From: Candidatus Lokiarchaeum ossiferum
GTDB lineage: Archaea; Asgardarchaeota; Lokiarchaeia; Sigyniarchaeales; Promethearchaeaceae
Reading direction: 5' to 3'
Assembly: GCA_025839675.1 (NCBI GenBank)
Contig: CP104013.1
Coordinates: 3,660,001 to 3,692,000 of the forward strand
DNA: 32,000 nt
The stretch's first letter is position 1; each line of letters opens with the position of its first letter. Shown here piece by piece: positions 1-28,849 of the stretch. The notes under the pieces are model-generated. The model was given only the letters and a program-made list of their open reading frames with translations, was not told where the DNA came from and searched no databases. The translations under genes were made by a program, and so were the position numbers.

Positions 1-1
1 A

Positions 2-6090: not shown

Positions 6091-6098
6091 ATTAGCAA

Positions 6099-6120
6099 TT
6101 TTTTTTAGGTTCCATTTTTT
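6099..6120 (+). terminator. oligo-T tracts after hisD (T8 at 6099-6106, T6 at 6115-6120)
   Basis: Two T-runs lie within 30 nt after the hisD TAA. Oligo-dT is the archaeal intrinsic termination signal. Only 39 nt separate hisD from the next ORF, so read-through is possible. Confidence 0.3.
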
Positions 6121-6129
6121 CCTAAATAT

Positions 6130-6621
6130 ATGAAAATAATACCTTATGAATCTAGTTTGGAATCACAGATTGTAAAACTAATGGCCGATTTCCGTGTTAC
6201 TCTGTCATCCTTCAAAAATGTTAAACGAAATCCAAATCTCATTATTGCCAAAGAGGAATTATGTGAGTATCTTTCTAATAATTTTCCAATTTTTATTGCA
6301 ATTGATAATCAAGGTATACTACATGGGTACATCGTCTGTCGTATTCAAGATCAGGTTGTGTGGGCTGAATCAATTTATGTTAAACATAATTCTCGTAAAC
6401 AAGGTATTGCATCTAAGCTCTATTTAGAAGCAGAAAAAATAGCTGTTTCGTTAAATTCTGATACTGTTTATAATTGGGTGCATCCAAACAATACCAAAAT
6501 CATCCCATTTCTAAAATCCCGAGGATATAATGTCTTAAATTTAATCGAGCTCCGGAAACCACATTTAGGTGAAAATCTATCTATGCATATCTCAATTTTA
6601 GATAATGTATTTGATTACTGA
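6130..6621 (+). CDS. GNAT-family N-acetyltransferase
   Basis: 163 aa. VKHNSRKQGIASKLYLEAEKIA fits the GNAT acetyl-CoA motif A (R/Q-x-x-G-x-A/G). Substrate unknown. Confidence 0.7.
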   Translation: MKIIPYESSLESQIVKLMADFRVTLSSFKNVKRNPNLIIAKEELCEYLSNNFPIFIAIDNQGILHGYIVCRIQDQVVWAESIYVKHNSRKQGIASKLYLEAEKIAVSLNSDTVYNWVHPNNTKIIPFLKSRGYNVLNLIELRKPHLGENLSMHISILDNVFDY

Positions 6622-6734
6622 ACAATCCATTAAATAAATGAACTACTTAGTTTTTCTCAATGTTCAATTGATTTTACTTATTTGCGGAGAATTTTGCTAC
6701 ATGATTCAATATGCGGAGATATTTTCCATACCAA

Positions 6735-6777: not shown

Positions 6778-9700
6778 ATGAGAAAAATGCAAAGTCAAGA
6801 AAAACCTAATAATGAGCAACCTCAGCAATTTGTAAAATGGACTAATATTATTACAGAGCTCGCATTTCTTTTACTATTCCTACTTGCACTTCCAGGTGTC
6901 GCAGGTCTTGTTTGTTCTGGTATCTCCTTTCTTTTTATTTCAGGAAATGAACTTTTTTTTGCGGGAGAAATAAATCTTGGCATGTTTATTTTAGGATTTT
7001 TAGTCAGTTTACCCATCTTCTTCTATTTGTATCTTAAAACTCGAAGAAAAAAGATATACAGTTTCATAACTCCCATGGTTTTCCGGAAAAAACTATCCTT
7101 AAGTTTAATAATACTCTATTTCCCTGCGATATTTGCTTCTACAGTGTTTTCGATTCTTGGGACTACCTTAGGCTATGATCTTTATCTAACTACATTTCAA
7201 ATTGCCATATTTACCATCTTTCCGTTAATTTCAATATTTTTCCAAAAATTCTTTCTCCTTCGTGTTCGAGTTACTGATTCATTGAAGGAAAATCTTACCG
7301 TTCCAATTAATTCAAAATTTATTACCGAATTAAAAAATGGGCAAATATTTCTTCTTTTCTTGAAATCTGCAGTTATAAATATTGCTGTCAATCTATTATT
7401 GCTCATTCTTGGTGGTTTGTATTCAACCGTTCTTTCAATAAATCTAACCTTTAGTATTCTTTCCTTAATTGCTGTTCAAGTTATTGCAGTTAAATTTAAC
7501 GAAGCCAAAGCTTTAGGTTTAGGAATTTTGGTGAAATTGTTATCAACTTTATTAATTCTTGCTAGTTTTATCTCCTTATCTGTCTTAGTTTACTCTGAAA
7601 CTATACCTATTGCCTTATATGTGACATTGGTTTTACTATTGACCATAAAACTTGCGCTACTCAATTTCAAATTCTCTATTCAGAAATTCCTTAATCAGAT
7701 CAGCTATACTAAAAATCTCACTTGGTTAGTGGTTCTTAATACATGTTCGTCTATTATTATCAATCTGGGTATCATTATTACTTCCTACGTTTTAATTGAT
7801 AACCCTTTTATCCAATTAGTCATTCAGATTGGATTGATCATTGAAAATCTATTTGAAAGTAAAATGGGGTTGATTCATCAAAAAATCTCACCTCTATTTT
7901 TAGTTGCGCAATTGCTTCTTGCTAATATTCATCTGTCATTTTTTATTGTAATGGACCTTTCTGAAATATTCTGGGCTGGACTTCTCACTTTTACTGCACT
8001 AGGGATTGGTATTCTTGAACTCCTAAAATATCAGAATTTTCTTTCCCAAAAACAAACTTATATTTTGCGCAATTGTATATATATTGCAATCTTATTAGAA
8101 TTAGCATTATTATTTTCAACATTGGCTGTAGCTAATGATTTAAACATCAACAACGTACCCTTTTTAACGTATCTCTTTTTTATATCTGTGTCAACTCTTA
8201 TTTCTTCTTTTCTTCTTAATAAAATCTATTTTGCAGACAAACCCTCCAATATCTTTACTGGTTTCTTGTATTGTAATCTTGCAATTATCTTATTTTGCTT
8301 TTTTGTCATGATTCAGAATATTATTCTCCCATTTTCAACAGATTTCGTATCTGGAGGTAAGAGATTTTCCAGAATATTCTTATTCTTTTCACCAAGTGGT
8401 GTTTTATCTAACATTGAAGAAGTTCTTTTAAGTATTTTTGATGGTATTGGAAGTTTATCTAATGACCAGAGTATTTTGTTTAAATCTAGTGAAGGGATGG
8501 TTAGTTTATTTAATGTATCTCTTTCCTCTCTTCTTTCTGTCGGATTGAATCTCGTTATTTTCAAATTTTTGAACGGTTGGAAACTAATTTCCAACGAATT
8601 ATATAAAAAACTTCAAATTATTCTTCAAATATTATCTATTGTTGCAATTTCCAATCTTATTGTTCTTATTACATTAGATCTAACGGGATTCGTTTTTTCC
8701 CTGATCGTGACCAATGTCTTAGTTAAATTATCGATATATTACCTTTACAAATCACACACGATCATTAAATATCCTTCTGTTTATCATGATCTTCAAAATA
8801 ATTTCTCTTGTGTGATTTTAGGGCAAGTTATTCTTTGGTTTGGATTCTTATTAGGAGAATCTTTCAACGTTCCTTTTCTCTATATCATGGTTGCATGTAT
8901 TATCTTGTTTCTGCTTGCCCAAAACAATATTCACCTTATAATAAAAAAATATGAATCGATAAAATCTCCCTATCATATTCTAAAAGTAAGCAACGCAATT
9001 TTATTTGGAATGCTCGCTTTGCTTGTTATTTTGATTCCAGTGATTGAGTTAAATTACATATTTGAAGATACGGGTATTTTTGTTCTATTTTTTTCCGGTA
9101 TTATATCTTATGTAAGTTTACGCTTTCTCTATAAAACAGGACAAAACCTACATCAAGGATTAGTAATTCCAAACAAGTTATGGAAAAGAATTCAATATAT
9201 ACTCTTCAACTTCAGACTTCTCTCATTATTCGCATCTCTTATTAGTTTCATTCTTGTCTCTGGTATTTTTGATTTTCTTTATGGGCTTTTTAGAAATGCT
9301 GAGAATGTGATTCCTGAGATTAAATTTGCTATATTCTTCATCTCACTTTCCTTGTTTATATTTTCCCTTAGATTGAAGCCTCTCCTAAATCGATCGAACG
9401 AAATTGAAGATAATCTTCTTAGTAAAATTACCATCTTGCAAGTTATTATGGTGCAGCAAATGAGTGTGCTTGGAATTCTTTTCATTTTTCTTCCAGTTTC
9501 ATCATTCAAACTTACGATAACTGCATTTCTAATAATCTTGCTTCTCTACTCCTTCATGTTTTCAATTAATCAGTACTTGAAACATTTTAATCGTTTTTGC
9601 AAATTTTTAGAGTCCATCAATTTCGTAATCTATAATTTTAATGGACTTTTATTCTCTTTCTTCTTATTTTCCATAATAACAATAGATTTATCCCAAAATT

Positions 9701-12700
9701 GGATCTTAGGATTATTGGTGGGGATTCTTGCTCATTTTGTAATTAATAATGTAATTCAATGGGTTAAAAGCAATTATTCGGAAAAAATCCTCCATATTAT
9801 TAATCTTATTGAACGAAGCTTGGTGTTGATTCTTGCTTTTCCTGCTTTATATCTATTTTTTAGTTCTCTCTCTTTCCCTAATGAATCAAACATAGTTTTA
9901 CTCTCATATCTATTTGAATCAAAATTTGTTGTTATTGCATTTTTGTCCCAATTTTTATTCATTATTACCACAGTCCTAAGTATTTCAAGGGGTCTGCATA
10001 AACTTGGTCGTATTAAATCTACGATGCATGAAAACATTTTGATTGCTTCTATTGAATCGTATTTGCTATCCATTGCCTCCATTTTTGCTTCAGGGATACA
10101 TCTTATTTTTAGAGCTGCCTTTAATCATCGATATGCTGAATATATTAACCTGATTTTGTGCTTTGTGGTTTCTACAGCTATTTTAACTGTCATGATTTTC
10201 TCAAACTTCTATAAAAAACGGATTTACGGCGTCCACAACTCAAAATGGAGAGGTTTTTGGACTCTTCAACATCTAATTTCTTGGACCCTTTTCTGGATCG
10301 CTTTATCTTTTGGCTTTGTTTTCTTATCTGAATATTCACTTACAGTCATTGTTGTATCAATTTCTGTTAATTTACTCGCCTTCAATTTTACTCTTTCCAG
10401 CTTTTCAAAACTCTATCCTGAACTTGCCTTAAAATTCCAATCGTTAATTTACGGAATTCAAATCACCATTTTTATCCTAATCGCAGCTTCGGGTGCTGTT
10501 TTATTCTATGATCTCTTCCAATTCATTTTACCCTTGGTCGTTCTTATTGGTTGCAGTTTATTTTTAGTAGAAATTCACGTTGTTCCTTTGTTTTCCAAAG
10601 GTCTCTTCAAGAATCGCAAGCATCTCATGAATAGCATAATTGGAGTAACTAATGTTGGGTTAGCAGTTGTGACTATTCTCCAATATCTTGCAAGATCTGA
10701 TATATATTTATTCGCTATAAATCCATCTGCTACAATTTCTGGGATATTGGGAATTTTTGCTCTTGGATTGATATTTGCGAATTATCAAGTTTTCTTGGGT
10801 AATCGTATATCTCCTGAAACTAAAACAACGAATAATTTTATCCTCGTTAATGGATTTATTTATGCTTCTTACTCTTTGGTGGTGTCTATATTTATCCAAG
10901 TGACCCAAGTAGAGCATTTTTATTTGTTTAAGATTGCGAACTATCTTTTTATTTTCTTCCTTCCCTTAATTCTTCTTTATGGTGTCCTCAGAGTCATGGT
11001 GTATTTTAAAGCCTATGAGAGTTCTCCTAAATTCTTCAAAATTCTCCAATATCAAGAATTTGCCCTCTGGACTGTATCTTCCAATTTACTCTTAGTTTTA
11101 ATATTGGTGTTCTTAGAATTCAATCCTGTGATAAGGGGATATAATGTGGTTTTAATCTGCTATAGTTTAATATATTCCCTCGATATCTTACGAACAATCA
11201 ATCCGCATATTTCCAAACATACAGAGTTTTGGAAAAATATCTTGAAACAAGCATCTATTGTGATTATGGCGTATTCATCTTACATAAATTTCAACCGAGT
11301 ACTTGAATATAGTCCTGAAATATCCTTAATCCTGACCCTCAGCTCCCAACTTTTCTTTATATTTTTATTAAAACCATATCGGAAGTTACTCGCAAAAATA
11401 TTAATTCAACTCACTGCAATGGTTACTTTCATAATTTCGGTATGTGCTGCATTCGAGCTTTATGGTTTAGCGATTCATTTTGGACAATTTAAAGCATCTT
11501 ATACGTGTTTGCTCTTGTTGATACCACTTGTCGGATCTTTTATCACTATTTTAATTCTCTCCAAATTAACTTCCATTAAAAGGATTGCATCTCAGATCCA
11601 TGCTTTGCTTTACAGTCTGGTGATTGTCGATTTAGCGGGTCTAGTATATTTTGCTGCAGTAACTTACTTTTTCCCAATAGATTCCATTTTCTTCGCTTCA
11701 TTAGTCATCCCGGTGTTGTTAATTGTTGATCGCTATACCTTCCGGTTATTAATGACTGATAAATTATTTATTCTTTGCTTAACCATCACTTATTCTATTG
11801 TTTCGAGTTTATTTTCAATAATTCTTGTTAAAAATGTAGTGGATCGTTTGAAATATCAAATTCCTATTGCATTCATCTTAGAAATATTATTCGTTACTGG
11901 TTTATTGATCTATATTGTTTGGCATTATGATAAGAATGAAGAATACGAATTTGTTACCGAATCTGATACACAACCAAATAATGACGATGAAAATGGAGAT
12001 GAATTTGAAATTCCATTCATTCAGGCACGTTCTGAAAATCCTAGTCAGAAGTTGTCTCACTCTATTTTTACTCATCTTTTCCAAATTAAAGTCGCTTTAA
12101 TGATTGTGCTATTCATCAATACTTCTTTGATCGTCATATTCAATTCTCTTGACTCTGAAATTGCCCATACTCCTTTCAATGTCGCTTCCCTCGGAATTTT
12201 AGCTCTCTATGCTCTATCCATGATTCCCAAGCAACAAGTTCAGCTTTTGAAATTTTATATCATTGCCGGATTAACTGTATTCTTAAGTATCCAATCTTAT
12301 TGGTTTGGAACAGGAATACTCTCTTCAATTCTTATTATTAGTAATCTTATCGCAATTAACTGGGTTGTGTCTTCCCGAAAATCTACTTCATTCAATGGAA
12401 AACTGTTACTAAATCTTTTAGTACTTGGGTTGTACTTCTTCAACTTCAAGTCTTTTAACATTGATTTCTTTACATTGAATGGCAATAACATGCTAGAACT
12501 CTCTATTCTCGCCTCTATTATCTGCTATGAGTTGGGAACTACCAAACATTACAAGAATTTAATGTTTAAATCTTTGAAAAATGGAGCCATAGCTTATTTC
12601 ATTTCAATTCTTACCCAATATTTTCTGGAACCTTCCTTTAAAAATGAAGTACTTGTTCCCATACTCGTTCCCATTGCGATTTTTCTAACCATTTTTGCAA

Positions 12701-15700
12701 CATTGGAATGGTTTCTGGTTGAAATTTCATATCCTGGATACAAATCAATTCCCAAATCTATTTGTGGATATGTTTCCCTCATCGGGATATTCTTTGTATA
12801 TAGTCAATTTTACAAAACTTTTTCTACCGTTTTTGGATATATCACCGCTCCCGTTCTACTATTCGTCATCATTGGGGCGATCCTCTTAAAAAATGTCGAT
12901 CGATTACGACATCGGAAAAATTTATTAAATCAGGTTGTTTTAGTTGCCACCTTTGGATTTTTCTTGTTCAGTGGATTAAATTATATTTTCACCAGTTTTG
13001 AAAATCCTCTTATTTTAAGTATCCTATTGAGCACTGCTATTGGGGGATATTTATATACTTTTATGTATAATTGGCTTGAAATAAAGACATCTAAAAACTT
13101 GATCATTACAACCCTGACTTCTGGAGCAGTTTCCGCAGGGGCATTCTTTTATTTCTTTTTAACTGATCTAAAAATATATTTTAAGCCCACTCACTCCTTC
13201 GCGGTTGCAATCGATTTTTGTGTATTAATGTTTTTCATCGCCCTTGGAATTTATTATAAGTCTTTTCAGAAAGTCTGGTCTATTGGAGCTTATGTGTGGA
13301 TAATTGTGCCCATTGCAAACTTCATCATAATATCATATAGTCTTCAAGATATTGACTACATCATTGAGGCGATTCATATTGGTTCAAACTCGGTCAATGG
13401 ATCAATAATTCTTGCCGTAGTTGTTTGTTCGTTGTTGTACTTGCCTGTGTTATTAACGAAGTTGAAAAAACATTTCAACAAAATTATCTATATTTTCTGG
13501 TTGGAAATGTTTATGTGTGCCTATTGGGCCGCTACAAATATATTTCCAAGTGAAACTCTTCTGCAATGGGTTTTTGCAGGTGCAATTGGCCTAATTCTTA
13601 TTCTCCCGATTTTGTATATCTACAAAAAATGGAATTGGATGTCCTTGGCATGGCCTTCGTTATGTGCGACGAATATTGTTTTTATTTCGAACTATTTATC
13701 CTACCTTCCTCCTCACTATTTGATTCCTATTGATGTTCTGATTGGAGGGATTTTCTTACTTTCCTTAGGATATTTCCCAAATATCAAGAAAATTAAATCC
13801 AACTGGCAAAATATCATAATTATTTCCGGATATATGACTATCCTTGGCGGTTTATTTGCATTGATTAATCCTGCCATGATTTTCTTACTTGAAGATAAGA
13901 TCATTTCGGCTGCTGTGACCACACTGATAATGTCTTTTGTCCTTCTTTCTGGTAAACAATTCCGAATTCGAGATGATATTGTAAAACATTTCCATGCTTA
14001 TATCTTGATATTAGACATTGCCGTAATCATCTGGCGTACTTTTTATCTTGTTGGAGTGTCTTTATTATCTCCTGAAGCGATTGTGATAACCCATTTTAGC
14101 GTATTTGGACTTTTATTGGGTTTATCTTTTGCTTTTGGAACCGCTCTTTCCTTCCAAGCCAGAAATTATCTAAAGAAAAGTTATCACTTTGTGCTCTGGT
14201 TTTTCATGGCTTTATTCTTTGGTTTATCGGTATTTCAATTATTGTTAGCTATTTTTGAAGTAGGTCCTTGGGCTTCAACAGGTGTTTTGATTCTGGCCAC
14301 ATCGCTAATATGTTTCAATTTCTTCAAAAAGAAAATTGCTTTATTCAATATGGTGATGCTTTCTGGTACCAGCTTAGTATTAATGAATTGGTTAAGTCAA
14401 ATTGATATTTTCCAAAACTATATTGGCTTGATTTTCATAGATTTGGTGGTATTGCTTGAATTCATTTATCTGTATTTAACACAAGATTCTAAATATCAAC
14501 TAGTTAATCAAACAACACTGAATAAACAATTAGTTGCCAGTGTATGGTTAATCCTTAGTATTGCTTTATCTATCACTACCAGTCTGATATTAACAAGTAT
14601 CCAAGCTGGGGGAGTTCCATCGAAAATACTTCTCGGAATCATTGTTTTCAACTTTCTGAATATTCCAACTTATAATTACATTCAAAAGAATAATCTCTTT
14701 GCCATGTTTACTCGGATGAATGAGATTTTAAAAGGGATCAAAATTTTCCTCTTTCAGAGCATTGTTTTATCGGGCACTCTCTTAATTTCTCTCAATATTC
14801 CCTTTTTGATTCAACCGAATACAAGTCATGCACTTTTCCAAACCTTCCTTCATCATACTGGGCTATTCCTCCTGCTTCAATTCATCTATTACGAGTTTGT
14901 TGAAAAATATTGGGTTCATTTAATTCCTGAAAAAATCCGGCTGCAAGTGAGTTCGGGGATCTTCTTGATATTCTCCTTAAGTTTTTATGGTAACTTGTTA
15001 TATATTCCCGATTCTTGGCAACTATCAACAATTATTCTAGGAATTTTATCCTTTTACACCATTGAACTAAATGTTAAAGCTAAGAATATTCAAAATTCAA
15101 AAGTTTTCCGGGTTGTTGTTCTTTCTGCTATGAATATATGTCTCTTTTTCATGCTGTGGGATCCTTTAATGATCGGATATTGGCTATCCAGAGGCAGATT
15201 TGAGTCACTTTCGCTCAGTTTATTTATTATTGCACTCATTTATTTTGTGGGAATGAAAATACACTTCATTTCTTCTAAGTTCGTTATTCCTGCATATGTC
15301 GTTACCAACTCACTCTTTGGGATATTTGTCGAAGAAATCCTTCGAAATGTTAGTAAAGCCTCGATATTTACAATATTGGGTACATTTTTCATTATTCTCT
15401 GCCTTTCAAATTTCTTCTTAATTAAAAATCCGAAATCAGTGCATCTATATTGGTTAGTTGCCAGTTTTGCCATTACTTGTCTAATTCATGGAGGAATACA
15501 AAATTATCTAATGTCTGATTTTGGAAAGAGTCTATTTTTCTTCTGCACTCTAGGGACTATTTTGACTGTTATTTATTATATTTTAGCTTCACAATCCCAT
15601 ACTCCCGCTTCTTTATCAAATCTTGATATTGGGGATCAACAGGTTTCAAAATCAGAAAAAAGCCTTACTGCTTCGAATTTATTAAGGATTCCAATGAAAA

Positions 15701-18700
15701 ACCGTTCGCAATTGTGGTTTATCAACACCTATCTTATTAGTTCTTTTTTAATCTCAATCGGGATAAATCAAGGCTGGTATTCTTTACTCACGAAACAATT
15801 AATTGAGCTCAGTCCATTATCAAGTTTCAGTTCCTTCATTTTATACAGCTGTAGCGCGATGATTGGATTTCTTCTTGGTTTAATCCTAATAGCTCAATAT
15901 ATTGAAAATGAAGATCAAAAATCTCAGAAACACCTTCAAGCTCTATCAACTAAAAGTAATCAAATTGCTATCCGTTATGGTGTTACCTTCGTTACGGCTT
16001 TAACAATCTTTATTGATTTATGGTTCATTTTAGACATTTGGACCTCCATTCTCGATAGAAATTTCGATTTACTTACATTAAATTTGGTAATTGCCTTAGT
16101 ACTTGTTTATCTTTGTATGCGGTTGAAATTTATTCCTAAGAAAGGAACGGCTCTAGTTACCTTAATTATTTCAATCCTTATTTCCTTGTATATTGAAGAA
16201 CTTGTCCGTATTAATCTTTCGATAGGTCCAATCTTTAATAGTTCTATTTTTAAATTCCTGTTCAATAGCTCCGTTTTCATTGTCCTTTTTATCCTGTTTA
16301 ATTGGCAAAAAACATATAATTCCATTTTGGCTTATACGTTCTGGAGTTTGATGTCATATTCACTCACTACGTTCATCAATACTTTGATTCGCTTAGTTTT
16401 ACCTTCAAGTTTTTCACCCTTCAATGAAATAGTGGTGTTTTCATTCATTTTTAGTATCCTTACAACGATAATATTTGGTCGCTTAGCGATTCCGAGAAAT
16501 GATAAATTGGATGTGTCTTCCCCTTCAAATTCTCTCCCAGATGGAGATCTAAACACATCCACTGAAAATGATAGACAGAAAATCCCAACTCGTACCTACT
16601 TAAAATATGGACATCCAGATCAACGGATTTCACAACACATTTTCGTTTATTGGGTGGTATTAATTGCGAATCTCGTCATCAGTTTTACCTTAGCTTATGC
16701 ATGGAATCAATTAACTCTAACGAAAATGTTTTATTATGAAGCGTTAAGCGGGTTTATGAATTTTATTATCAGTTTTACCTTAGCTTTTGCAATTTTTGCA
16801 GGTATTTTCCGCTTAGTTATAAAATATACTCGCAAAAACTCAATATCTTTCTCCAACCGTTTTGAAACAATAAACAATCCTGTTCTAGATGTAATTCTGG
16901 GGTATTTGGGCACTCTGTGCTTTAATATTACACTTTTCATTCATCTTTGGTACCAATTTGATACTGCTCTATCTTTAGAACAATTGAATTTCATGAGTTT
17001 ATTGCTTAATGTCACTATAAACACAATGATTGTCTCTTTGTTGATGAAATTCGCAGTAATCAAACCTTTCAAGCCAGACTTTTTTAGTTTTATTAATTCC
17101 ATTGTGTTTTCTCTATTGATTGAAGAATTAATTCGTATGGTATTTGCGGATACTCTGTTTAATATTTCCGTCTTCCTCTTTTTATTCACGGTAATCAATT
17201 GGCGAAAAACTTACAATTCAGTTCTTGCTTATATTTTCTGGTCGGTGCTCTCATTCTCATTCTCTTCATTCCTCTATACATTTATCCGTCTTGCATTACC
17301 TGAAAGCTTCTCACCCTTCAATGAAGTGGTTGTTTATTCATTCATTATTTGTATCTTCACTTCAGTTATATATGGACGTATGGCAAACCATCCGGTTGAT
17401 AATCCCGATGTTCCGTATATGATAGGCCCCACTATGGAAGAAAAAACACCTCAGTTCTCCGAAAATAACAATCAGAAAGTCCCTAGTATTATATTCTTAA
17501 AATATGGTCATCCTGATCAACAGATTTCAAAACGACGTTTTGTTTATTGGACTCTATTCGCAAATTTCATAGTTAGCAGTATTTTAGCTTATGCCTGGAA
17601 TCGATTAATACTCACCAATTTATCATTTTACGAAGATTTACCCTTGTTTATGGAAGTACTAACATGTTTAACTCTTGCTTTTGCGATCTATGCAGGGATA
17701 ACTCGGTTAATTCTGAAATATAATCGAAAAGAATCGGTTATTTTTGCAAATATTTTTGAAAACATGAACAAACCATTAGTAGACATTGTTTACGGATATG
17801 TAGGAACTTTTGCAATGAACGTTACTTTATTTATCCACTTATGGTACTTGTTTAACACTGCTTTTTCACTCGAAAACTCCAATTATACAAGTTTATTATT
17901 CAATCTTTCAATTAACACACTAATTGTATCTCTTTTGATGAAAAATGCCATAATCAAACCATTCAAGCCAGCAGCATTTAGTTTCATTAACTCAATTGTA
18001 TTTTCACTATTCATTGAAGAACTAATTCGCACGAATTTAGAAACCGAACTTCTTCTCAATATTTCAATCTTCGTGATTTTGTTCACGGTAATTAATTGGA
18101 GAAAAACTTACAATACTATACTTGCCTATGGATTTTGGACTGCAATCTCCTTTTCTCTCTCCACTTTTCTGTATGAACTGCTTAATTTAACATTTCCCGC
18201 ATCCTATACAAGATTTAATAAAGTGCTTGTGTTTGCATTCATTTTCTGTTTAATCACCACTTTCTTATTTGGAAGCCTCGCAAATCGCTTTGTTGATCGA
18301 TTGAATTTCAAGGTCCTTTCAGTTTCTGATTCTGAAGATGAAAACAAGCTTGCTTTAACAACTACTTCCAATCCTAACAAGGAAATTCTTTTATTGAAAT
18401 ACGGTCATTCAAATCAATTGATAGCGCAGCGTATTTTTGTATATTGGTTACTGTTGGCGAGTGTGATTAATACATTTATTTTGACCTATGGTTGGAATCA
18501 AGGAATTCTATCTCAACTTTCCCTTTTTAGTGATGTGGGTGGATTTATGAATTTTGTAATGAATTTCTCTCTAGCATCTGCTATTCTAATGGGATTTTTA
18601 CGCTTGATTATCCAATATAACCAGAAGATGGAAATAACTCTTAATCGAAACTGGAATAAATTGAATTCACCTATTACGGATGAATTATTGGGATATTTAG

Positions 18701-21504
18701 GGACTTTTGCGTTCAATATTTCCCTATTCTTGCATATTTGGTATCTGTTAGAGATCAATTCTTATCTCATTCTATTAGATTTCACTGGTCTTGTTTTCAA
18801 TCTTGCAGTGAATTTCCTCATTATCACATTATTAATGGAGTTCAATGTTATCAAACCGTATAAGCAAGTACTTGCAAGTATATTTACAACACTCTTATTC
18901 TCGCTTCTCCTCGAAGAAGTGGTAAGAATAAGTAATCCTGATATTAACTGGGCTCTATTGGTTGCAATTACCACACTTAGCTTTACCATACTCAACACAC
19001 TTAAAATTAAAACTTCTAAGATGGTTTATAGTTATTGGGCAAGTCTGATATTGTGCATTACTGTGTTCATTATGAATTCGGTGATTCTCAATAATCCTGA
19101 AATGATGCCTTTGACTGTGCTTTATTTCTCAGTAATCATCTTTTCATCCTTCGCCTTGATTGTGTCTCTTTCGCTCGCTCACCGCTTCTGGATCAAAATC
19201 GCACCTTGGATTGGTGAAAAATATAATTCCGTCAATAATAAATCCAGTAACCAAAAAGAATTTCCCTTTAAATTAGAAACCTCAATAGAAGCTCCAAAAG
19301 AAATTCTCTCCAATTCTTCTCCAGAAAATGAATGGGTAGAAAGTCATCCCAATTTTCCCCTTCTCTTATTGGGTAATCGATCTCACTTACCTGTCAAAAA
19401 AATTTTCTCCATTTTGGTTTTTGCAGAAATTCTGTTAACCATTCCATACCTTTCTCACCTCCTTAATGGAGCCTATATCCATAGCATCAAAAATATTGCA
19501 TTAGAAAGTATATATTCTGACTTTTCGTTCCTGTCTCTCTTTGCAGTGTTTATTACTTTCAGTTTTACCTATCTTTTTGGAAAGCTCGGAAAATATATTC
19601 AAAAATATCAATTATGGGCTGAAAATCCTAAACTCTATAGTAATATTCAACGATTTTTTACGCTTAGTGGGATCATTTATTATATTATTCTTCCGTTAAT
19701 GTTAATGGGCTATTTGAATCAATTATTTGGATTAATCCCAAACTTGACGCTTTTCATTCGTACCGCATTAGATATTCTAATAGTTGTGTTAGGACTTTAT
19801 ATCGGAATTTATCTCCTTGATATCAAGAAAAATCACTTCATCCCTCAAAAAATTGCTTTCAAATGTACTATTATTCTGTCTATACTCATGGCGTTAGATA
19901 TAAGTACTTTGTACATAAGTATTTTGTGGGGCAAAATTCCACCATACTTTGTTATTGCCTCTGCTCTCATTATATTTTCACTCTCTCTAAATATATTGCA
20001 TATAATCAAGGAATTTTCAGAGGATTTGAAGGGAAAGATCAGAGTGGGTGTCATCGGCAGCCTTTATATTGAGATACTTCTTCTCTTAGGAGGTCTATTC
20101 GCGAATTTTGAAGATGTTGCTAAAATATTCAGAAGCGTTCTGATAATAGTTCTTGTTATCTACCTCGCCATCGAGCTGGAACATCATGTAAAATGGATCA
20201 AACCAATTACTTCATTTATCACAACTATTCGACCTTACAGTTACATCATAGCTACTGGTTCAATTGCCATTTTAATTGGATTTTGGGGATTTACCGTGTT
20301 TAATCTCTCTTTAGTTATCTTTTCACTCATGTTATTCACTGCATCATTAATATTGTGGAGCTATCTTGAGTTTAGAAAGGATAATCCTGAAAAATTCCTA
20401 AAAAACCGAAAAGTTCTTGGAATTGCTCTATATGCAGAAATTTTACTTCTTATCAATGCTCTCACTTTAAACTTGTATATAGATAAAGTTATTCGCTTTG
20501 ATATTGTTAAATCAGATTTACTTGCTGTATTTTGTGCCATTACTCAATTTTTCATTGTAAGTTATCTTATTTTACTTGTTGATCACCGGGTTCTCAAATT
20601 AATCAAAGAATCGGTTTTGAAAATATTAGAATTAGGTTGTTTCTTTGTTTCAATCATTTTGGGTGCCTTTGATATTCTTTTTTATATTATATCAAAAACT
20701 AGCTCTCGACCCAGCACACCCTCTTCTGGTTTTGCAATCCCAAATACTTCCATTTTAATTCCAATCTTAATTGTGAGCGCCATTATTGGATTTGTATTGC
20801 ATTTACGATTCAAAAATAAGATCGTCAATCAAGTCTCCTATTTTGTTGGATTTTTCGAATTAGCACTAATAATTTTCAAGTTTGGGGAACAAAATAATAA
20901 TAGCAATAATATTTTGCTTGCAATTTGTATTTTTGTTGCTCTTCTCTTATATCCATTTATTTTCTTTATGGATAAAATGCGAGTTCTCATAAAAAAACTT
21001 ATAATGGATCTCAAAAACCTAGTGATTCGCATTAAAAACTGGTTCATCCAAGCTTGGCACACTTTGGTCCATTTATATCACAAGTATCGAACGATTGTGT
21101 TTGTAGTCATTGCAAGTATCATCGGTGCTATTCCGCCCATCATTCTTGCTGAATCTAACCTCATTATTGGATTATTTATTGGTGGCTTAATCTTCCTAAT
21201 TGTTGTTTATCCAGTATCACCCGAAAAATTAGATGATATTTCAGCAAAAACGTTTACGAAAAAGATAATTTACCGTTCCATGATATTACTCTCAGCTTTC
21301 GGAATAATAATTAGCTTATTTGAAGATCCAGAATCATGGATATTTTCATTGTTAGTTTGGGCTCTATTTGGGTATATTCTTGTAATTGTAAAGCGTCGCG
21401 AAGAACTATATAAATTGCCTATTTATTGGCGCTTTTTCAGCGCATTAGCTACAATATTGCTATCAATTCTGACTGTAGTTTTAGTAATTATTTCCTTTAT
21501 TTAA
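6778..21504 (+). CDS. giant polytopic integral membrane protein (4,908 aa), function unknown
   Basis: An uninterrupted 14,727-nt ORF in AT-rich DNA. The product is almost continuous TM-length hydrophobic segments with K/R-rich short loops and internal amino-acid repeats. A T9 tract lies 16 nt after the TAA. Confidence 0.8.
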   Translation: MRKMQSQEKPNNEQPQQFVKWTNIITELAFLLLFLLALPGVAGLVCSGISFLFISGNELFFAGEINLGMFILGFLVSLPIFFYLYLKTRRKKIYSFITPMVFRKKLSLSLIILYFPAIFASTVFSILGTTLGYDLYLTTFQIAIFTIFPLISIFFQKFFLLRVRVTDSLKENLTVPINSKFITELKNGQIFLLFLKSAVINIAVNLLLLILGGLYSTVLSINLTFSILSLIAVQVIAVKFNEAKALGLGILVKLLSTLLILASFISLSVLVYSETIPIALYVTLVLLLTIKLALLNFKFSIQKFLNQISYTKNLTWLVVLNTCSSIIINLGIIITSYVLIDNPFIQLVIQIGLIIENLFESKMGLIHQKISPLFLVAQLLLANIHLSFFIVMDLSEIFWAGLLTFTALGIGILELLKYQNFLSQKQTYILRNCIYIAILLELALLFSTLAVANDLNINNVPFLTYLFFISVSTLISSFLLNKIYFADKPSNIFTGFLYCNLAIILFCFFVMIQNIILPFSTDFVSGGKRFSRIFLFFSPSGVLSNIEEVLLSIFDGIGSLSNDQSILFKSSEGMVSLFNVSLSSLLSVGLNLVIFKFLNGWKLISNELYKKLQIILQILSIVAISNLIVLITLDLTGFVFSLIVTNVLVKLSIYYLYKSHTIIKYPSVYHDLQNNFSCVILGQVILWFGFLLGESFNVPFLYIMVACIILFLLAQNNIHLIIKKYESIKSPYHILKVSNAILFGMLALLVILIPVIELNYIFEDTGIFVLFFSGIISYVSLRFLYKTGQNLHQGLVIPNKLWKRIQYILFNFRLLSLFASLISFILVSGIFDFLYGLFRNAENVIPEIKFAIFFISLSLFIFSLRLKPLLNRSNEIEDNLLSKITILQVIMVQQMSVLGILFIFLPVSSFKLTITAFLIILLLYSFMFSINQYLKHFNRFCKFLESINFVIYNFNGLLFSFFLFSIITIDLSQNWILGLLVGILAHFVINNVIQWVKSNYSEKILHIINLIERSLVLILAFPALYLFFSSLSFPNESNIVLLSYLFESKFVVIAFLSQFLFIITTVLSISRGLHKLGRIKSTMHENILIASIESYLLSIASIFASGIHLIFRAAFNHRYAEYINLILCFVVSTAILTVMIFSNFYKKRIYGVHNSKWRGFWTLQHLISWTLFWIALSFGFVFLSEYSLTVIVVSISVNLLAFNFTLSSFSKLYPELALKFQSLIYGIQITIFILIAASGAVLFYDLFQFILPLVVLIGCSLFLVEIHVVPLFSKGLFKNRKHLMNSIIGVTNVGLAVVTILQYLARSDIYLFAINPSATISGILGIFALGLIFANYQVFLGNRISPETKTTNNFILVNGFIYASYSLVVSIFIQVTQVEHFYLFKIANYLFIFFLPLILLYGVLRVMVYFKAYESSPKFFKILQYQEFALWTVSSNLLLVLILVFLEFNPVIRGYNVVLICYSLIYSLDILRTINPHISKHTEFWKNILKQASIVIMAYSSYINFNRVLEYSPEISLILTLSSQLFFIFLLKPYRKLLAKILIQLTAMVTFIISVCAAFELYGLAIHFGQFKASYTCLLLLIPLVGSFITILILSKLTSIKRIASQIHALLYSLVIVDLAGLVYFAAVTYFFPIDSIFFASLVIPVLLIVDRYTFRLLMTDKLFILCLTITYSIVSSLFSIILVKNVVDRLKYQIPIAFILEILFVTGLLIYIVWHYDKNEEYEFVTESDTQPNNDDENGDEFEIPFIQARSENPSQKLSHSIFTHLFQIKVALMIVLFINTSLIVIFNSLDSEIAHTPFNVASLGILALYALSMIPKQQVQLLKFYIIAGLTVFLSIQSYWFGTGILSSILIISNLIAINWVVSSRKSTSFNGKLLLNLLVLGLYFFNFKSFNIDFFTLNGNNMLELSILASIICYELGTTKHYKNLMFKSLKNGAIAYFISILTQYFLEPSFKNEVLVPILVPIAIFLTIFATLEWFLVEISYPGYKSIPKSICGYVSLIGIFFVYSQFYKTFSTVFGYITAPVLLFVIIGAILLKNVDRLRHRKNLLNQVVLVATFGFFLFSGLNYIFTSFENPLILSILLSTAIGGYLYTFMYNWLEIKTSKNLIITTLTSGAVSAGAFFYFFLTDLKIYFKPTHSFAVAIDFCVLMFFIALGIYYKSFQKVWSIGAYVWIIVPIANFIIISYSLQDIDYIIEAIHIGSNSVNGSIILAVVVCSLLYLPVLLTKLKKHFNKIIYIFWLEMFMCAYWAATNIFPSETLLQWVFAGAIGLILILPILYIYKKWNWMSLAWPSLCATNIVFISNYLSYLPPHYLIPIDVLIGGIFLLSLGYFPNIKKIKSNWQNIIIISGYMTILGGLFALINPAMIFLLEDKIISAAVTTLIMSFVLLSGKQFRIRDDIVKHFHAYILILDIAVIIWRTFYLVGVSLLSPEAIVITHFSVFGLLLGLSFAFGTALSFQARNYLKKSYHFVLWFFMALFFGLSVFQLLLAIFEVGPWASTGVLILATSLICFNFFKKKIALFNMVMLSGTSLVLMNWLSQIDIFQNYIGLIFIDLVVLLEFIYLYLTQDSKYQLVNQTTLNKQLVASVWLILSIALSITTSLILTSIQAGGVPSKILLGIIVFNFLNIPTYNYIQKNNLFAMFTRMNEILKGIKIFLFQSIVLSGTLLISLNIPFLIQPNTSHALFQTFLHHTGLFLLLQFIYYEFVEKYWVHLIPEKIRLQVSSGIFLIFSLSFYGNLLYIPDSWQLSTIILGILSFYTIELNVKAKNIQNSKVFRVVVLSAMNICLFFMLWDPLMIGYWLSRGRFESLSLSLFIIALIYFVGMKIHFISSKFVIPAYVVTNSLFGIFVEEILRNVSKASIFTILGTFFIILCLSNFFLIKNPKSVHLYWLVASFAITCLIHGGIQNYLMSDFGKSLFFFCTLGTILTVIYYILASQSHTPASLSNLDIGDQQVSKSEKSLTASNLLRIPMKNRSQLWFINTYLISSFLISIGINQGWYSLLTKQLIELSPLSSFSSFILYSCSAMIGFLLGLILIAQYIENEDQKSQKHLQALSTKSNQIAIRYGVTFVTALTIFIDLWFILDIWTSILDRNFDLLTLNLVIALVLVYLCMRLKFIPKKGTALVTLIISILISLYIEELVRINLSIGPIFNSSIFKFLFNSSVFIVLFILFNWQKTYNSILAYTFWSLMSYSLTTFINTLIRLVLPSSFSPFNEIVVFSFIFSILTTIIFGRLAIPRNDKLDVSSPSNSLPDGDLNTSTENDRQKIPTRTYLKYGHPDQRISQHIFVYWVVLIANLVISFTLAYAWNQLTLTKMFYYEALSGFMNFIISFTLAFAIFAGIFRLVIKYTRKNSISFSNRFETINNPVLDVILGYLGTLCFNITLFIHLWYQFDTALSLEQLNFMSLLLNVTINTMIVSLLMKFAVIKPFKPDFFSFINSIVFSLLIEELIRMVFADTLFNISVFLFLFTVINWRKTYNSVLAYIFWSVLSFSFSSFLYTFIRLALPESFSPFNEVVVYSFIICIFTSVIYGRMANHPVDNPDVPYMIGPTMEEKTPQFSENNNQKVPSIIFLKYGHPDQQISKRRFVYWTLFANFIVSSILAYAWNRLILTNLSFYEDLPLFMEVLTCLTLAFAIYAGITRLILKYNRKESVIFANIFENMNKPLVDIVYGYVGTFAMNVTLFIHLWYLFNTAFSLENSNYTSLLFNLSINTLIVSLLMKNAIIKPFKPAAFSFINSIVFSLFIEELIRTNLETELLLNISIFVILFTVINWRKTYNTILAYGFWTAISFSLSTFLYELLNLTFPASYTRFNKVLVFAFIFCLITTFLFGSLANRFVDRLNFKVLSVSDSEDENKLALTTTSNPNKEILLLKYGHSNQLIAQRIFVYWLLLASVINTFILTYGWNQGILSQLSLFSDVGGFMNFVMNFSLASAILMGFLRLIIQYNQKMEITLNRNWNKLNSPITDELLGYLGTFAFNISLFLHIWYLLEINSYLILLDFTGLVFNLAVNFLIITLLMEFNVIKPYKQVLASIFTTLLFSLLLEEVVRISNPDINWALLVAITTLSFTILNTLKIKTSKMVYSYWASLILCITVFIMNSVILNNPEMMPLTVLYFSVIIFSSFALIVSLSLAHRFWIKIAPWIGEKYNSVNNKSSNQKEFPFKLETSIEAPKEILSNSSPENEWVESHPNFPLLLLGNRSHLPVKKIFSILVFAEILLTIPYLSHLLNGAYIHSIKNIALESIYSDFSFLSLFAVFITFSFTYLFGKLGKYIQKYQLWAENPKLYSNIQRFFTLSGIIYYIILPLMLMGYLNQLFGLIPNLTLFIRTALDILIVVLGLYIGIYLLDIKKNHFIPQKIAFKCTIILSILMALDISTLYISILWGKIPPYFVIASALIIFSLSLNILHIIKEFSEDLKGKIRVGVIGSLYIEILLLLGGLFANFEDVAKIFRSVLIIVLVIYLAIELEHHVKWIKPITSFITTIRPYSYIIATGSIAILIGFWGFTVFNLSLVIFSLMLFTASLILWSYLEFRKDNPEKFLKNRKVLGIALYAEILLLINALTLNLYIDKVIRFDIVKSDLLAVFCAITQFFIVSYLILLVDHRVLKLIKESVLKILELGCFFVSIILGAFDILFYIISKTSSRPSTPSSGFAIPNTSILIPILIVSAIIGFVLHLRFKNKIVNQVSYFVGFFELALIIFKFGEQNNNSNNILLAICIFVALLLYPFIFFMDKMRVLIKKLIMDLKNLVIRIKNWFIQAWHTLVHLYHKYRTIVFVVIASIIGAIPPIILAESNLIIGLFIGGLIFLIVVYPVSPEKLDDISAKTFTKKIIYRSMILLSAFGIIISLFEDPESWIFSLLVWALFGYILVIVKRREELYKLPIYWRFFSALATILLSILTVVLVIISFI
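15270..19700 (+). repeat. intragenic tandem array of ~299-codon (about 8-TM) repeat units inside the giant ORF
   Basis: NW(Q/R)KTYN codons start at 16300, 17197 and 18094. LKYGH codons start at 16600, 17497 and 18394. Both sets are exactly 897 nt apart. Degenerate flanking copies occur at ~15427 (IKNPKSVHLYW) and ~18994 (NTLKIKTSKMVYSYW). Confidence 0.85.
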
Positions 21505-22035: not shown

Positions 22036-22701
22036 CTATTCTTCTAGTTTCTTATGGCACAACCACCAATCATAGCATTCATGATCTTTTGATTTCAGGC
22101 GCTCTTTTGCCGTTTTAACATCCTTTGCAGGAGGTACGATTACATGATCTCCAACCAACTCACTATTTGGCCAATTGGCGGGGATAGCTACTTTATTTTT
22201 GTCTGCTATTTGAAGAATTTTAACAATTCGAACAATCTCATCCATATTTCTTCCAATCTCTTGAGTATAATAGAGGATTAATCGTATAAATCCTTCAGTA
22301 TCGACAACAAATACTGCTCTGACTGTATTGGATCCTTTGCCAGGATGGATCATTCCTAAGGTTTTACCAATCAATCCATGGTCCGCGATAATCGGAAATT
22401 GGATTTCCTGATGTAGATTTTCTTCAATTCACTCGGTCCATTTGATATGACTAAAAACTTGATCAATCGAAAGTCCCAAGAGTTCACAGTTGTAACTTTT
22501 AAATTCTTCGTAATGCTTTGCGAAACTATAAAATTCGGTGGTGCACACAGGTGTAAAATCGGCAGGATGAGAAAATAACACAAAATATTTTCCTTTATAA
22601 TCTCCCGGAAGATTTTTCATCCCGTGCGTGGTTTGTACTTTCATATCGGGGAATTTGTCCCCAATTAATGGAAAACTTTGATTTTCAGACATTTTTTTCA
22701 C
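22036..22701 (-). pseudogene. peroxiredoxin (archaeal Prx6-like AhpC/TSA family) interrupted by one in-frame TGA (22429-22431)
   Basis: ORFs 22429..22701 and 22036..22374 are in the same frame (327 nt apart). Translation across the gap reads ...[36 protein letters not shown].... The peroxidatic FTPVCTTE and the C-terminal CYDWWLC are both present. Confidence 0.8.
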
Positions 22702-23333
22702 TTTTTAGTTTTTCAATTTAATTTTCAATGATAATTTCAAAACTACCATTGAGTATTCAAATATCTATTCACAATGAATGTTAATTCAATCCTTAAGACT
22801 TAAAATTAGATTTTAAAAAATTCTTTAATTTTATTATCACACTTTCGTTTGCATCCTAAATCAAAGTTTTACATGAAGTTCCCGGTGAGAATTCCTCTAT
22901 TTGGAGATTTAATCATGGAATTTAGGTTCTTTATTACGCAATTTAGTTTTCTAGGTAGTAGATTAAATATAATACTTCAATCCTTGTTTTTTGAAAGGCT
23001 TGGGTTTTTACTTTCGGTTGACTCCTAGGTTTCGCAAACAATGGGCAAAAGTGATCTAACATATAAACATCGATTGAGACGAACTTTTTTCACTCAGTAG
23101 AGATCTCACTACATAATAAAGAATTGTCAATAGATATGAAGAAATCTCTATTCTGTGGGCTTGTTGTTGATTTATATATTAAATTCGGGTTAAATCATTT
23201 TATGAGAAGTAAAAGGTAGGTTTGAAAAATCAGAAGTATAGTTGGTTGTGAATTTGATTCCAGATTGATTGGGTTGTTTTTTTCATTATACTCTGTCATC
23301 TCCTGATAATTTTCTTGTTGGTTTTAATAAATT

Positions 23334-23402
23334 TTAGTAGTATTGGGTTTGGGTTGAGACTAAGCTCCAGATATTTTCCGTTTTTTGAGTGTGAGTTTTC
23401 AT
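23334..23402 (-). CDS. candidate 22-codon mini-ORF in repeat unit 1 (MKTHTQKTENIWSLVSTQTQYY); coding status unproven
   Basis: ATG...TAA on the minus strand, with GGAG 10 nt upstream of the ATG. Confidence 0.2.
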   Translation of the reverse strand: MKTHTQKTENIWSLVSTQTQYY

Positions 23403-23440
23403 TTTTTAGGTTCTCCAGGGGGTTAGTGTGTGAAAAAAGT

Positions 23441-23509
23441 TTAGTAGTATTGGGTTCGGGTTGAGACTAAGCTCCAGACATTTTCTGTTTTTTGAGTATG
23501 AGTTTTCAT
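23441..23509 (-). CDS. candidate 22-codon mini-ORF in repeat unit 2 (MKTHTQKTENVWSLVSTRTQYY); coding status unproven
   Basis: Same frame and structure as unit 1, with GGAG 10 nt upstream of the ATG. Confidence 0.2.
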   Translation of the reverse strand: MKTHTQKTENVWSLVSTRTQYY

Positions 23510-23546
23510 TTTTTAGGTTCTCCAGGGGTTTGTGTGTGAAAAAAGT

Positions 23547-23615
23547 TTAGTAGTATTGGGTTCGGGTTGAGACTAAGCTCCAGACATTTTCCGTTTTTTG
23601 AGTGTGAGATTTCAT
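23547..23615 (-). CDS. candidate 22-codon mini-ORF in repeat unit 3 (MKSHTQKTENVWSLVSTRTQYY); coding status unproven
   Basis: Same ORF as units 1 and 2. The upstream sequence differs (cggtgcaaaaaaaaATG) and is preceded by AT-rich TATA-like sequence. Confidence 0.2.
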   Translation of the reverse strand: MKSHTQKTENVWSLVSTRTQYY

Positions 23616-23947
23616 TTTTTTTTGCACCGTATTTTTTATGTATAAGAGATGTGTTTCTAATTATATTAAGGTGTATCTAATATATAAAGATATGTATTTT
23701 TAGTGTGTATCATTTTTCTAAATTTTCTTGGTTAATTCTCTAATATCCCTAAAATCATCCAATTGTTGTAAAATAATTTTTTCTGAACAAATGAACAAAT
23801 TTATTAATAGTTCAATTCCATTTAACTTATGAAATTGATGAATAAGGAACTATGGTGAATAAGTTAACATTCAATGTTAGTGTGTATTCTATGATTCAAT
23901 AAATGTACTAAAAAAAAGCGAGAAAAATATATGCTACGAACAAAAAC

Positions 23948-28559: not shown

Positions 28560-28834
28560 TAAACTTACTTTTGATAAATCAGTTTCCGAGGACTTGTTTT
28601 TTTAAACGTTGGAATGCAATATTTTTTCGAATAGAAGGCATATTACTAGGTATAGGCTAGTTAAGATTTTCAAATCGCCATTTTTCATGAACCCATTGTT
28701 TTCGATAAGAATAAAAATATTCGGAAAGATCTCCAAGATCAGGGCCCAAATAATATAACTCCCTTGATATTAGGGTTGCTTAACACGAATTTAAAATCGT
28801 TAGTGATTTGCTCTATTAATTCTGAGCTAGCCAT
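28560..28834 (-). pseudogene. decayed partial duplicate of the nadE 3' end
   Basis: 28594-28619 matches nadE 28895-28920 at 25/26 nt. 28617-28632 matches nadE 29014-29028. The minus-strand translation gives ...GPDLGDLSEYF... and ...SIRKNIAFQRLKKQVLGN*, compared with NadE ...QLGDVKAFI...TIRKNIFKR...FAFQRLKKQILDN. It is broken by a frameshift, stops and a ~95-nt deletion. Confidence 0.5.
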
Positions 28835-28849
28835 ATCTCAATTTCCTCT

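Follow-up and report, generated by a model that had tools for sequence, protein, structure and literature searches.

A window of 32,000 nucleotides (nt) from a Lokiarchaeum genome (contig CP104013.1, positions 3,660,001 to 3,692,000; the window is this whole stretch, and coordinates are counted from its first letter) contains a giant gene whose product belongs to an unnamed family of archaeal membrane proteins. The 897-nt tandem repeats inside this gene were shown to represent the lineage-specific amplification of an independently folding helical-bundle module with eight transmembrane (TM) segments. Taken as a whole, the explanation that we favor, namely amplified 8-TM modules in a giant membrane protein that functions as a modular array, is given a probability of about 0.6, and its functional component is considerably more tentative. 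A preliminary description of the sequence had drawn attention to the region 15270-19700, which was found to lie wholly inside one uninterrupted open reading frame (ORF) of 14.7 kb.

6778..21504, plus strand: giant ORF, 4,908 amino acids (aa), or 4,905 aa from the second Met at 6787 (ORF list and translation)

The giant gene contains an array of six repeat units

The array consists of the following units, to which the most conspicuous recurring motif is added.

14521..15399, plus strand: unit U1, aa 2582-2874, with EEILR at nt 15328, lacking the His and GHxDQ
15421..16299, plus strand: unit U2, aa 2882-3174, beginning with IKNPKSVHLYW, with EELVR at nt 16195
16300..17196, plus strand: unit U3 (copy A), aa 3175-3473, 299 aa, with NWQKTYN, LKYGHPDQ, LFIHLWY, IKPFKP and, at nt 17122, EELIR
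17197..18093, plus strand: unit U4 (copy B), aa 3474-3772, 299 aa, the modeled unit
18094..18993, plus strand: unit U5 (copy C), aa 3773-4072, 300 aa, with LKYGHSNQ, LFLHIWY, IKPYK and EEVVR
19006..19977, plus strand: unit U6, aa 4077-4400, with a longer, putatively cytoplasmic loop; EExxR and His lost
16600..16623, plus strand: LKYGHPDQ, closing the acidic loop immediately ahead of TM3, found again at 17497-17520 and 18394-18417

The two motifs reported to recur at exactly 897-nt spacing were recovered at that spacing, NW(Q/R)KTYN starting at nt 16300, 17197 and 18094 and LKYGH(P/S)(D/N)Q at 16600, 17497 and 18394. The 24-mer TTAAAATATGG[A/T]CATCC[A/T]GATCAA was likewise confirmed to be identical between copies at 22 of its 24 positions, and EExxR was located at the three positions listed above and at 18016 and 18913. 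The more diverged copies that had been proposed to flank these core units (U3 to U5) are real: IKNPKSVHLYW opens U2 at nt 15421, NTLKIKTSKMVYSYW opens U6 at nt 18994, and the alignment of LLLLGNRSHLPVKKIF with LLLKYGHSNQLIAQRIF was reproduced with MAFFT. The number of units had been put at five and had to be revised to six, the sixth being U1 upstream; three of the units are ancestral to the whole family. The motifs LF(I/L)H(L/I)WY and IKP(F/Y)K are each present once per core unit.

BLASTP of unit B (aa 3474-3772) against the giant protein matched unit A with 57% identity (E = 3e-111), unit C with 40% identity (E = 2e-76) and the upstream copy (aa 2884-3162) with 25% identity (E = 1e-17); these values were obtained without compositional correction, and self-BLASTP with composition-based statistics gave nothing off the diagonal. 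U5 is ~40% identical to U3 as well as to U4. Judged by these alignments, the similarity among the core units is far beyond chance. A profile hidden Markov model (HMM) of the unit was built from the three core units and iterated over the family, each recruit being required to score E <1e-4 under the previous model. U2 scored 67 bits before iteration, and the iterated HMM matched U1 at aa 2582-2874, U2 at 2882-3162, U3 at 3179-3470, U4 at 3478-3769, U5 at 3777-4069 and U6 at 4077-4400. Because scores from an iterated HMM are partly circular, they were checked with untrained proteins and by profile-profile comparison. Proteins that were never in training (P0012-P0018) matched the unit HMM at E values of 1e-13 to 1e-63 per unit, and the profile-profile comparison detected exactly three unit positions in the family consensus (probability 99.9-100%) and none besides. 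We also looked for additional 8-TM units outside the array in the giant protein and detected none.

Conservation is uneven along the unit. The helices of U3 and U4 share 63% identity and the 37-aa loops ahead of the motif 22%, whereas the seven residues directly preceding TM3, a stretch that comprises most of LKYGHPDQ, are identical at 7 of 7 positions. In U3 we also observed a 34-nt direct repeat (16668-16701 and 16758-16791, 85% identical, 90 nt apart and in frame), which encodes NLVISFTLAYA in TM3 and NFIISFTLAFA in TM4. In U4 and U5 this repeat is far less pronounced. A micro-duplication, local conversion or chance in biased sequence may account for it.

The middle unit was amplified in the Lokiarchaeum lineage

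Full-length homologues of the giant protein include DSAG12_00898 of Promethearchaeum syntrophicum MK-D1 (3,940 aa, "hypothetical protein"), proteins from metagenome-assembled genomes (MAGs) and a 4,905-aa "hypothetical protein" of Ca. Lokiarchaeum ossiferum, the orthologue, which at 94% identity is the nearest protein in the databases. The window is therefore assigned to a second strain or species of Lokiarchaeum. The homologues in Promethearchaeaceae have lengths of 3,491-4,356 aa, with truncated MAG proteins down to 2,791 aa, and phmmer matched ten of them with bit scores of 336-1108 and 26-31% identity over 24-43% of the query. In common with the window protein, family members have a conserved N-terminus, a conserved core, a tandem array of ~300-aa 8-TM units downstream of the core and a C-terminal YPVSPE...EELYxLPIYWRF segment. 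Full-length homology and these shared segments place the window protein, with its six units, in this DSAG12_00898-like family. The conserved core and the C-terminal segment are as follows.

12895..14397, plus strand: most conserved core, aa 2040-2540, ~17 predicted TM helices, directly upstream of the unit array
21178..21501, plus strand: conserved C-terminal segment, aa 4801-4908, YPVSPE...RREELYKLPIYWRF, common to all full-length family members

The family differs from the window protein in the number of units. The copy number of the unit, which the preliminary description had proposed to compare among related genomes, is six in both Lokiarchaeum strains and three outside Lokiarchaeum, the latter in 13 of 13 other family proteins or loci with a whole array (among them P. 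syntrophicum MK-D1, two other Promethearchaeum MAGs, Ca. Harpocratesius repetitus and several MAGs). The most divergent member, P0010, has one detectable unit. Over most of the stretch aa 2800-4000 of the Lokiarchaeum protein, the homologues show 70-98% gap in the family alignment.

A neighbor-joining tree of 40 units grouped U1 with the position-1 units and U6 with the position-3 units of the three-unit proteins. The orthology of U1 with the ancestral position-1 units was also apparent from the iterated HMM and from hhalign (probability 100%), and that of U6 with the ancestral position-3 units from the HMM, the alignment and the residue table described below. The core units formed a group ((U3,U4),U5) adjoining the position-2 and position-3 groups, and U2 was unresolved at the base; U2 was assigned to the position-2 type because it is 21-26% identical to U3-U5 and aligns with them. 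Each unit pairs with its counterpart in the L. ossiferum orthologue, which shows that there has been no recent gene conversion. At the level of sequence comparison, these data show that the ancestral protein carried three tandem, already diverged modules in positions 1, 2 and 3 and that the position-2 (middle) unit, single at first, became four by amplification in the Lokiarchaeum lineage, giving six modules. The reconstructed branching order shows U2 as the oldest extra copy, followed by U5 and then U3/U4, and the amplification, as reconstructed here, predates the split of the two Lokiarchaeum strains.

All named family members are from Promethearchaeaceae (Lokiarchaeia-type Asgard archaea). 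Scanned by HMMER with the unit profile, 1.84 billion representative proteins yielded only ten matches, all of them family members or fragments, and two metagenome scans revealed no further relatives. In a word-indexed search the core profile retrieved one fragment and the C-terminal segment none; we give these two outcomes no weight, as hydrophobic low-complexity words probably swamp the candidates. In our search of the literature we found no description of the family, of locus tag DSAG12_00898 or of giant Asgard TM proteins. A divergent relative of the core was observed in the MAG Zod_Metabat.578 (Promethearchaeota), with 32% identity over residues 113-364, in an open stretch of 2,750 aa (L012) that had no unit match at E 1e-5 or better. 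It may represent a branch of the family without the unit array, or a fragmented gene.

The unit copies are under purifying selection

The closest pair of units, U3 and U4, shares 66% nt identity, and the other pairs share 38-56%. For the U3-U4 paralogues we estimated a nonsynonymous divergence (dN) of 0.31 and a synonymous divergence (dS) of ~1.5, corresponding to a dN/dS ratio (omega) of ~0.2, and for U3-U5 a dN of 0.49 and a dS of ~2.9; in the remaining pairs, U4-U5 included, synonymous differences were too saturated for dS to be estimated. Given this saturation of synonymous sites, the duplications are old. Between the two Lokiarchaeum strains, a protein-guided codon alignment, in which two compensating 1-aa indels are present, gave a dN of 0.027, a dS of 0.132 and an omega of 0.21 for the whole gene, a ratio of 0.07 for the core and omega values of 0.13-0.32 for orthologous units (0.21-0.32 for U2-U5). 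These estimates show purifying selection on all unit copies and agree with the earlier suggestion that the conservation is functional and not a residue of recent duplication.

These data also bear on two explanations that would deprive the array of biological meaning. The additional units might be neutral filler generated by duplication, a hydrophobic spacer with no sequence-specific role; that the genera differ in unit number (3 versus 6) and in nothing else obvious, and that the long loop is poorly conserved between units (22-24% identity), would fit this explanation. However, omega is ~0.2 between paralogues despite saturated dS and 0.21-0.32 for U2-U5 between strains, the new copies have kept GH(P)DQ, LFxHLW, W-N and EExxR, and unit length is constant at 299, 299 and 300 aa, and we therefore consider neutral filler very improbable. 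Still less probable, indeed practically negligible, is that the array is a mis-assembled, collapsed or expanded repeat, a danger that had been raised in the preliminary description. Tandem repeats of ~900 nt are a known assembly hazard, and both the window and the Logan contigs were probably assembled from short reads. The units, however, are too dissimilar at the nt level to have been collapsed or expanded during assembly, contigs from three separate Logan sequencing-run assemblies specify one and the same 4,905-aa product, and the six units are found again, at 94% aa identity and with the two compensating indels, in CP163304.1, the 6.27-Mb chromosome record of L. ossiferum. Artefact and neutral filler are effectively refuted.

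Each unit is predicted to form an eight-helix bundle with both ends in the cytoplasm

An AlphaFold2 model of U4, computed with an alignment of 21 units, had a mean predicted local distance difference test score (pLDDT) of 82.8 and a predicted TM-score (pTM) of 0.75. It contains eight long helices (residues 2-33, 40-63, 108-141, 150-178, 193-218, 231-249, 258-281 and 285-298) and a disordered loop at residues 64-107. Hydropathy and the model thus both support the eight TM segments per unit that had been proposed. The proposed order of three TM segments, a loop and five further TM segments describes the same eight helices, in a phase other than the arrangement of two helices, loop and six helices found here. 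There was no support for an internal 4+4 or 2+2+2+2 symmetry of the unit (hhalign probability ≤35%).

Counts of lysine plus arginine in the successive loops of the 21 units were 2/102/5/39/12/45/3, and the unit junction is basic (IKxxK / NWRKTYN). According to the positive-inside rule, this alternation therefore places both unit ends in the cytoplasm (N-in/C-in), in agreement with the earlier argument that an even helix count preserves topology on duplication. The acidic loop with GH(P)DQ, the KYxxK loop and the IKPFKP loop would face the cytoplasm, and W134-N135 in TM3, H214 in TM5, N236 and N240 in TM6, and E274-E275-x-x-R278 in TM7 (U4 numbering) would be situated at the outer ends of their helices. 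This predicted arrangement departs from the preliminary description, which had placed the conserved polar residues inside the membrane.

In a table of residues covering 52 units, E275 and R278 were invariant wherever the unit is of the position-1 (13/13) or position-2 (19/19) type, and most position-3 units have lost them. His214 is present in 11/11 position-2 units of three-unit proteins and in 6/8 of the amplified Lokiarchaeum units, and in none of the position-1 units, and the Gly of GHxDQ is invariant in position-3 units. The invariance of Trp is likewise position-specific. As EExxR and the His are mostly lost in position 3, they are not required in every module.

Searches for known relatives were negative. 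Pfam gave no match for the whole protein (E up to 1) and, for the 21 units and ten core segments, only chance-level matches to unrelated small families (E up to 10; best E, 0.03). NCBIfam models matched neither the whole protein nor the unit nor the core, the C-terminal segment having a single, far-sub-threshold match, and PDB sequence profiles matched neither unit nor core. Foldseek searches of the PDB returned nothing significant for the unit (best E, 0.8; TM-score, ≤0.26) or the core (best E, 0.5). The family is one for which we found no annotation, Pfam or NCBIfam model, or structural relative.

For the giant protein as a whole, a calibrated hydropathy scan predicted 138-146 TM segments, with settings chosen to reproduce the AlphaFold counts of 8 in U4 and 17 in the core. 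An initial Kyte-Doolittle pass gave 122 hydrophobic segments and missed helices predicted by AlphaFold; in this pass no soluble domain was evident, the longest uncalled stretch being ~100 aa and largely hydrophobic.

Comparison with known membrane proteins

Piezo channels, which are eukaryotic, have 38 TM helices per protomer, including nine tandem 4-TM units that form a curved blade. The giant protein resembles Piezo, by analogy and not by relationship, in being a very large polytopic protein with serial, even-numbered TM bundles, and differs from it in having 8-TM instead of 4-TM units and ~140 instead of 38 TM segments and in belonging to an archaeal family. There was no Pfam match to Piezo and no Piezo chain among the Foldseek hits for unit or core, and neither the pore module nor the cap domain of Piezo is recognizable in the giant protein. 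NuoL/M/N and MrpA/D (Proton_antipo_M) similarly have homologous TM bundles in series with conserved charged residues; their charges, however, are mid-membrane and their repeats are inverted 5-TM repeats, whereas the charges here are predicted at helix ends, there is no repeat inside the unit, and no sequence or fold match to Proton_antipo_M was obtained. GT-C and O-antigen ligase-like enzymes were represented neither among Pfam or NCBIfam matches nor, in the case of GT-C structures, among the Foldseek hits.

Proteases of the CPBP/Rce1 family (PF02517) share with the unit eight TM helices, a Glu-Glu...Arg motif and a conserved His in TM helices. In CPBP proteins the order of motifs is EExxxR, FxxxH, HxxxN/D. 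This candidate was rejected: in the unit EExxR lies in TM7, the single conserved His is upstream in TM5, there is no HxxxN/D, PF02517 matched none of the 21 units (E up to 10), and Foldseek found no Rce1-like fold. The "archaeovorins" of Omnitrophota are giant multi-TM proteins of >30,000 aa with SecA-DEAD, peptidase and carbohydrate-active domains (bioRxiv 10.1101/2023.11.21.568195). The giant protein shares with them the nature of a giant prokaryotic ORF with many predicted TM helices and little annotation; archaeovorins, however, carry soluble domains, whereas the protein described here has no recognizable one and is essentially all membrane.

Possible function of the array

Our proposal starts from a module that would begin and end in the cytoplasm, so that adding one would leave the topology of the remaining protein undisturbed. 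Each module would expose to the cytoplasm a disordered acidic loop of ~45 aa ending in GH(P)DQ and would set a polar cluster (W-N, His, two Asn and EExxR) at the outer ends of TM3, 5, 6 and 7. It would thus provide one outward-facing polar site, which may bind an ion, a lipid head group or an envelope component or may staple neighboring helices, and one cytoplasmic docking loop. Amplification of the position-2 unit would multiply these sites and loops and enlarge the membrane footprint. The protein would then be a modular, length-tunable, membrane-embedded array and not a classical transporter, a suggestion that we make tentatively and with low confidence. Several considerations weigh against our explanation. 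Unit topology was derived from the positive-inside rule, the putative clustering of the polar residues was deduced from helix ends combined with that topology, the TM count of the giant protein is a hydropathy-scan estimate, and the three Logan assemblies may stem from the same culture or project. The invariant Glu, Arg and His could equally mark a catalytic or transport site, and the functional proposal concerns a protein known here from its sequence and from models.

Three other functions have to be weighed against the modular array, each of them distinctly less probable. In one, surmised in the preliminary description when it spoke of ion, proton or ligand handling, each 8-TM unit would be an ion-, proton- or small-solute-conducting module. 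Its pathway would be formed by the polar helix residues, as it is by Lys, Glu and His in the antiporter-like subunits of complex I and Mrp. Conserved Glu, Glu, Arg, His and Asn in or beside TM helices under purifying selection, and a compact eight-helix bundle placed in series in a manner that recalls NuoL/M/N, would suit such a module. The polar residues, however, are predicted at outer helix ends rather than mid-membrane, position-3 units are without them, the unit has no detectable inverted or 4+4 repeat, and there is no energy-coupling domain; neither Proton_antipo_M nor any other transporter family was matched (E up to 10), and no transporter was found by Foldseek in the PDB. With no transporter, channel or enzyme family emerging from Pfam, NCBIfam, PDB profiles or Foldseek, the surmise of ion, proton or ligand handling stays a conjecture, and we judge a conducting module unlikely. 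Taken as a whole, the interpretation given in the preliminary description is partly supported.

The position-1 and position-2 units might instead be membrane enzymes with an outer-face active site, such as a hydrolase or transferase that depends on a metal, has lipid-linked or envelope substrates and resembles a CPBP/Rce1 protease or a GT-C transferase, in which case amplification would multiply catalytic centers. The Glu and Arg of EExxR are invariant in all 32 position-1 and position-2 units (32/32), the His is complete in the position-2 units of three-unit proteins, the Trp-Asn pair and two Asn lie at the same predicted membrane level, and CPBP proteases likewise have eight TM helices and an EExxxR motif. 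The spacing, however, is EExxR and not EExxxR, the His precedes it, FxxxH is missing as well as HxxxN/D, PF02517 was matched by 0 of 21 units, and no Rce1, GT-C or other enzyme was found in the PDB by Foldseek; an enzymatic function appears about as doubtful as a conducting one. A similarly small chance is given to a membrane-embedded scaffold that would shape or stiffen the Asgard membrane and its protrusions or sense their curvature, with 3 versus 6 modules tuning its length. By a rough estimate, the bilayer area occupied by a chain of ~140 TM segments would be of the order of 100 nm2, and the GH(P)DQ loops could anchor it multivalently, for example to the cytoskeleton. Long protrusions are known for L. 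ossiferum and P. syntrophicum, and the Asgard cell membrane is wall-less.

If the predictions hold, the giant protein would have by far the most membrane-spanning helices in one known polypeptide, ~140 against the 38 of Piezo, the number commonly cited as the maximum. The protein is conserved, and purifying selection acts on it, in the only Asgard archaea that are in culture. Among prokaryotes these archaea are the closest relatives of eukaryotes, and their cell architecture is unusual in being wall-less and rich in protrusions. The array would constitute a natural experiment in the growth of a polytopic protein by a tandem, even-numbered, N-in/C-in bundle that keeps its polar signature and varies in copy number with the genus. 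The family is also a well-defined target for structural and proteomic work in L. ossiferum and P. syntrophicum.

Other parts of the giant protein and its gene neighborhood

Conservation along the giant protein, in a profile over the family alignment, peaks at aa 2100-2500 and in the final 100 residues. The core alignment (A2) has a mean column identity of 58% and 45 invariant columns, and the C-terminal segment (aa 4801-4908) has a mean identity of 46% to the homologues in its window of the family alignment. An AlphaFold2 model of the core (aa 2040-2540) has ~17 helices and is of moderate confidence (pLDDT, 72; pTM, 0.48). A further duplication was found in the N-terminal half.

9793..11415, plus strand: second, older internal duplication, aa ~1006-1284 versus ~1228-1546, a multi-TM segment of ~260 aa

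In windows of the family profile, hhalign supported this duplication of aa 1006-1546 with a probability of 96% (E values of 1e-8 and 3e-9), and the 8-TM unit profile does not match it. It seems that successive duplications of TM bundles enlarged the giant protein.

The window has a G+C content of 32% and contains no tRNA genes or Rfam matches. Upstream of the giant gene lie the his operon (hisC/B/H/F/A-IE/G/D) and then a gene for a GNAT acetyltransferase; downstream are genes for a peroxiredoxin, a 4Fe-4S protein, a TPR protein, an HxlR regulator, a methyltransferase and NAD synthase. In P. syntrophicum MK-D1 the giant gene is flanked by Band_7 and amidohydrolase genes. Since the neighborhood differs between Lokiarchaeum and Promethearchaeum, there is no operon partner. 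We observed that in MK-D1 the Band_7 (SPFH/stomatin-like) membrane-scaffold gene (L006, 6496-7731) directly precedes the giant gene on the same strand; this is not so in Lokiarchaeum, and it may be coincidental.

Other differences between the two Lokiarchaeum strains

A 106-nt tandem repeat is present in the 1.25-kb intergenic region between the peroxiredoxin and 4Fe-4S genes, with 2.7 copies that are 94% identical in the window (23329-23620) and ~3.8 copies in L. ossiferum (locus L005, 26539-26941), and its copy number therefore varies between strains; it has no Rfam match. The adjacent peroxiredoxin gene (22036-22701, minus strand) has an in-frame TGA at 22429-22431, where L. ossiferum has Trp in an intact gene of 218 aa. 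The same split was seen in an independent Logan assembly, and the TGA is probably a real nonsense mutation or a pseudogene in the window strain. Between the methyltransferase and NAD synthase genes, L. ossiferum has a HepT/MNT nucleotidyltransferase toxin-antitoxin pair (L005, 31947-32740) that is absent from the window (28581-28888).

Similarity to the L. ossiferum locus is mosaic, with 99.4% identity in the his operon (window 1-4775) and 93-97% in the rest (6679-30780), and window 4776-6678, which covers the 3' part of hisD and the GNAT gene (6130-6621), has no megablast match in L005; this pattern suggests recent recombination or gene replacement. Along the giant gene itself (6778-21504 against L005 10001-24718), dS between the strains ranges ~30-fold, from 0.014 to 0.47 per 200 codons, which suggests recombination tracts inside the gene.

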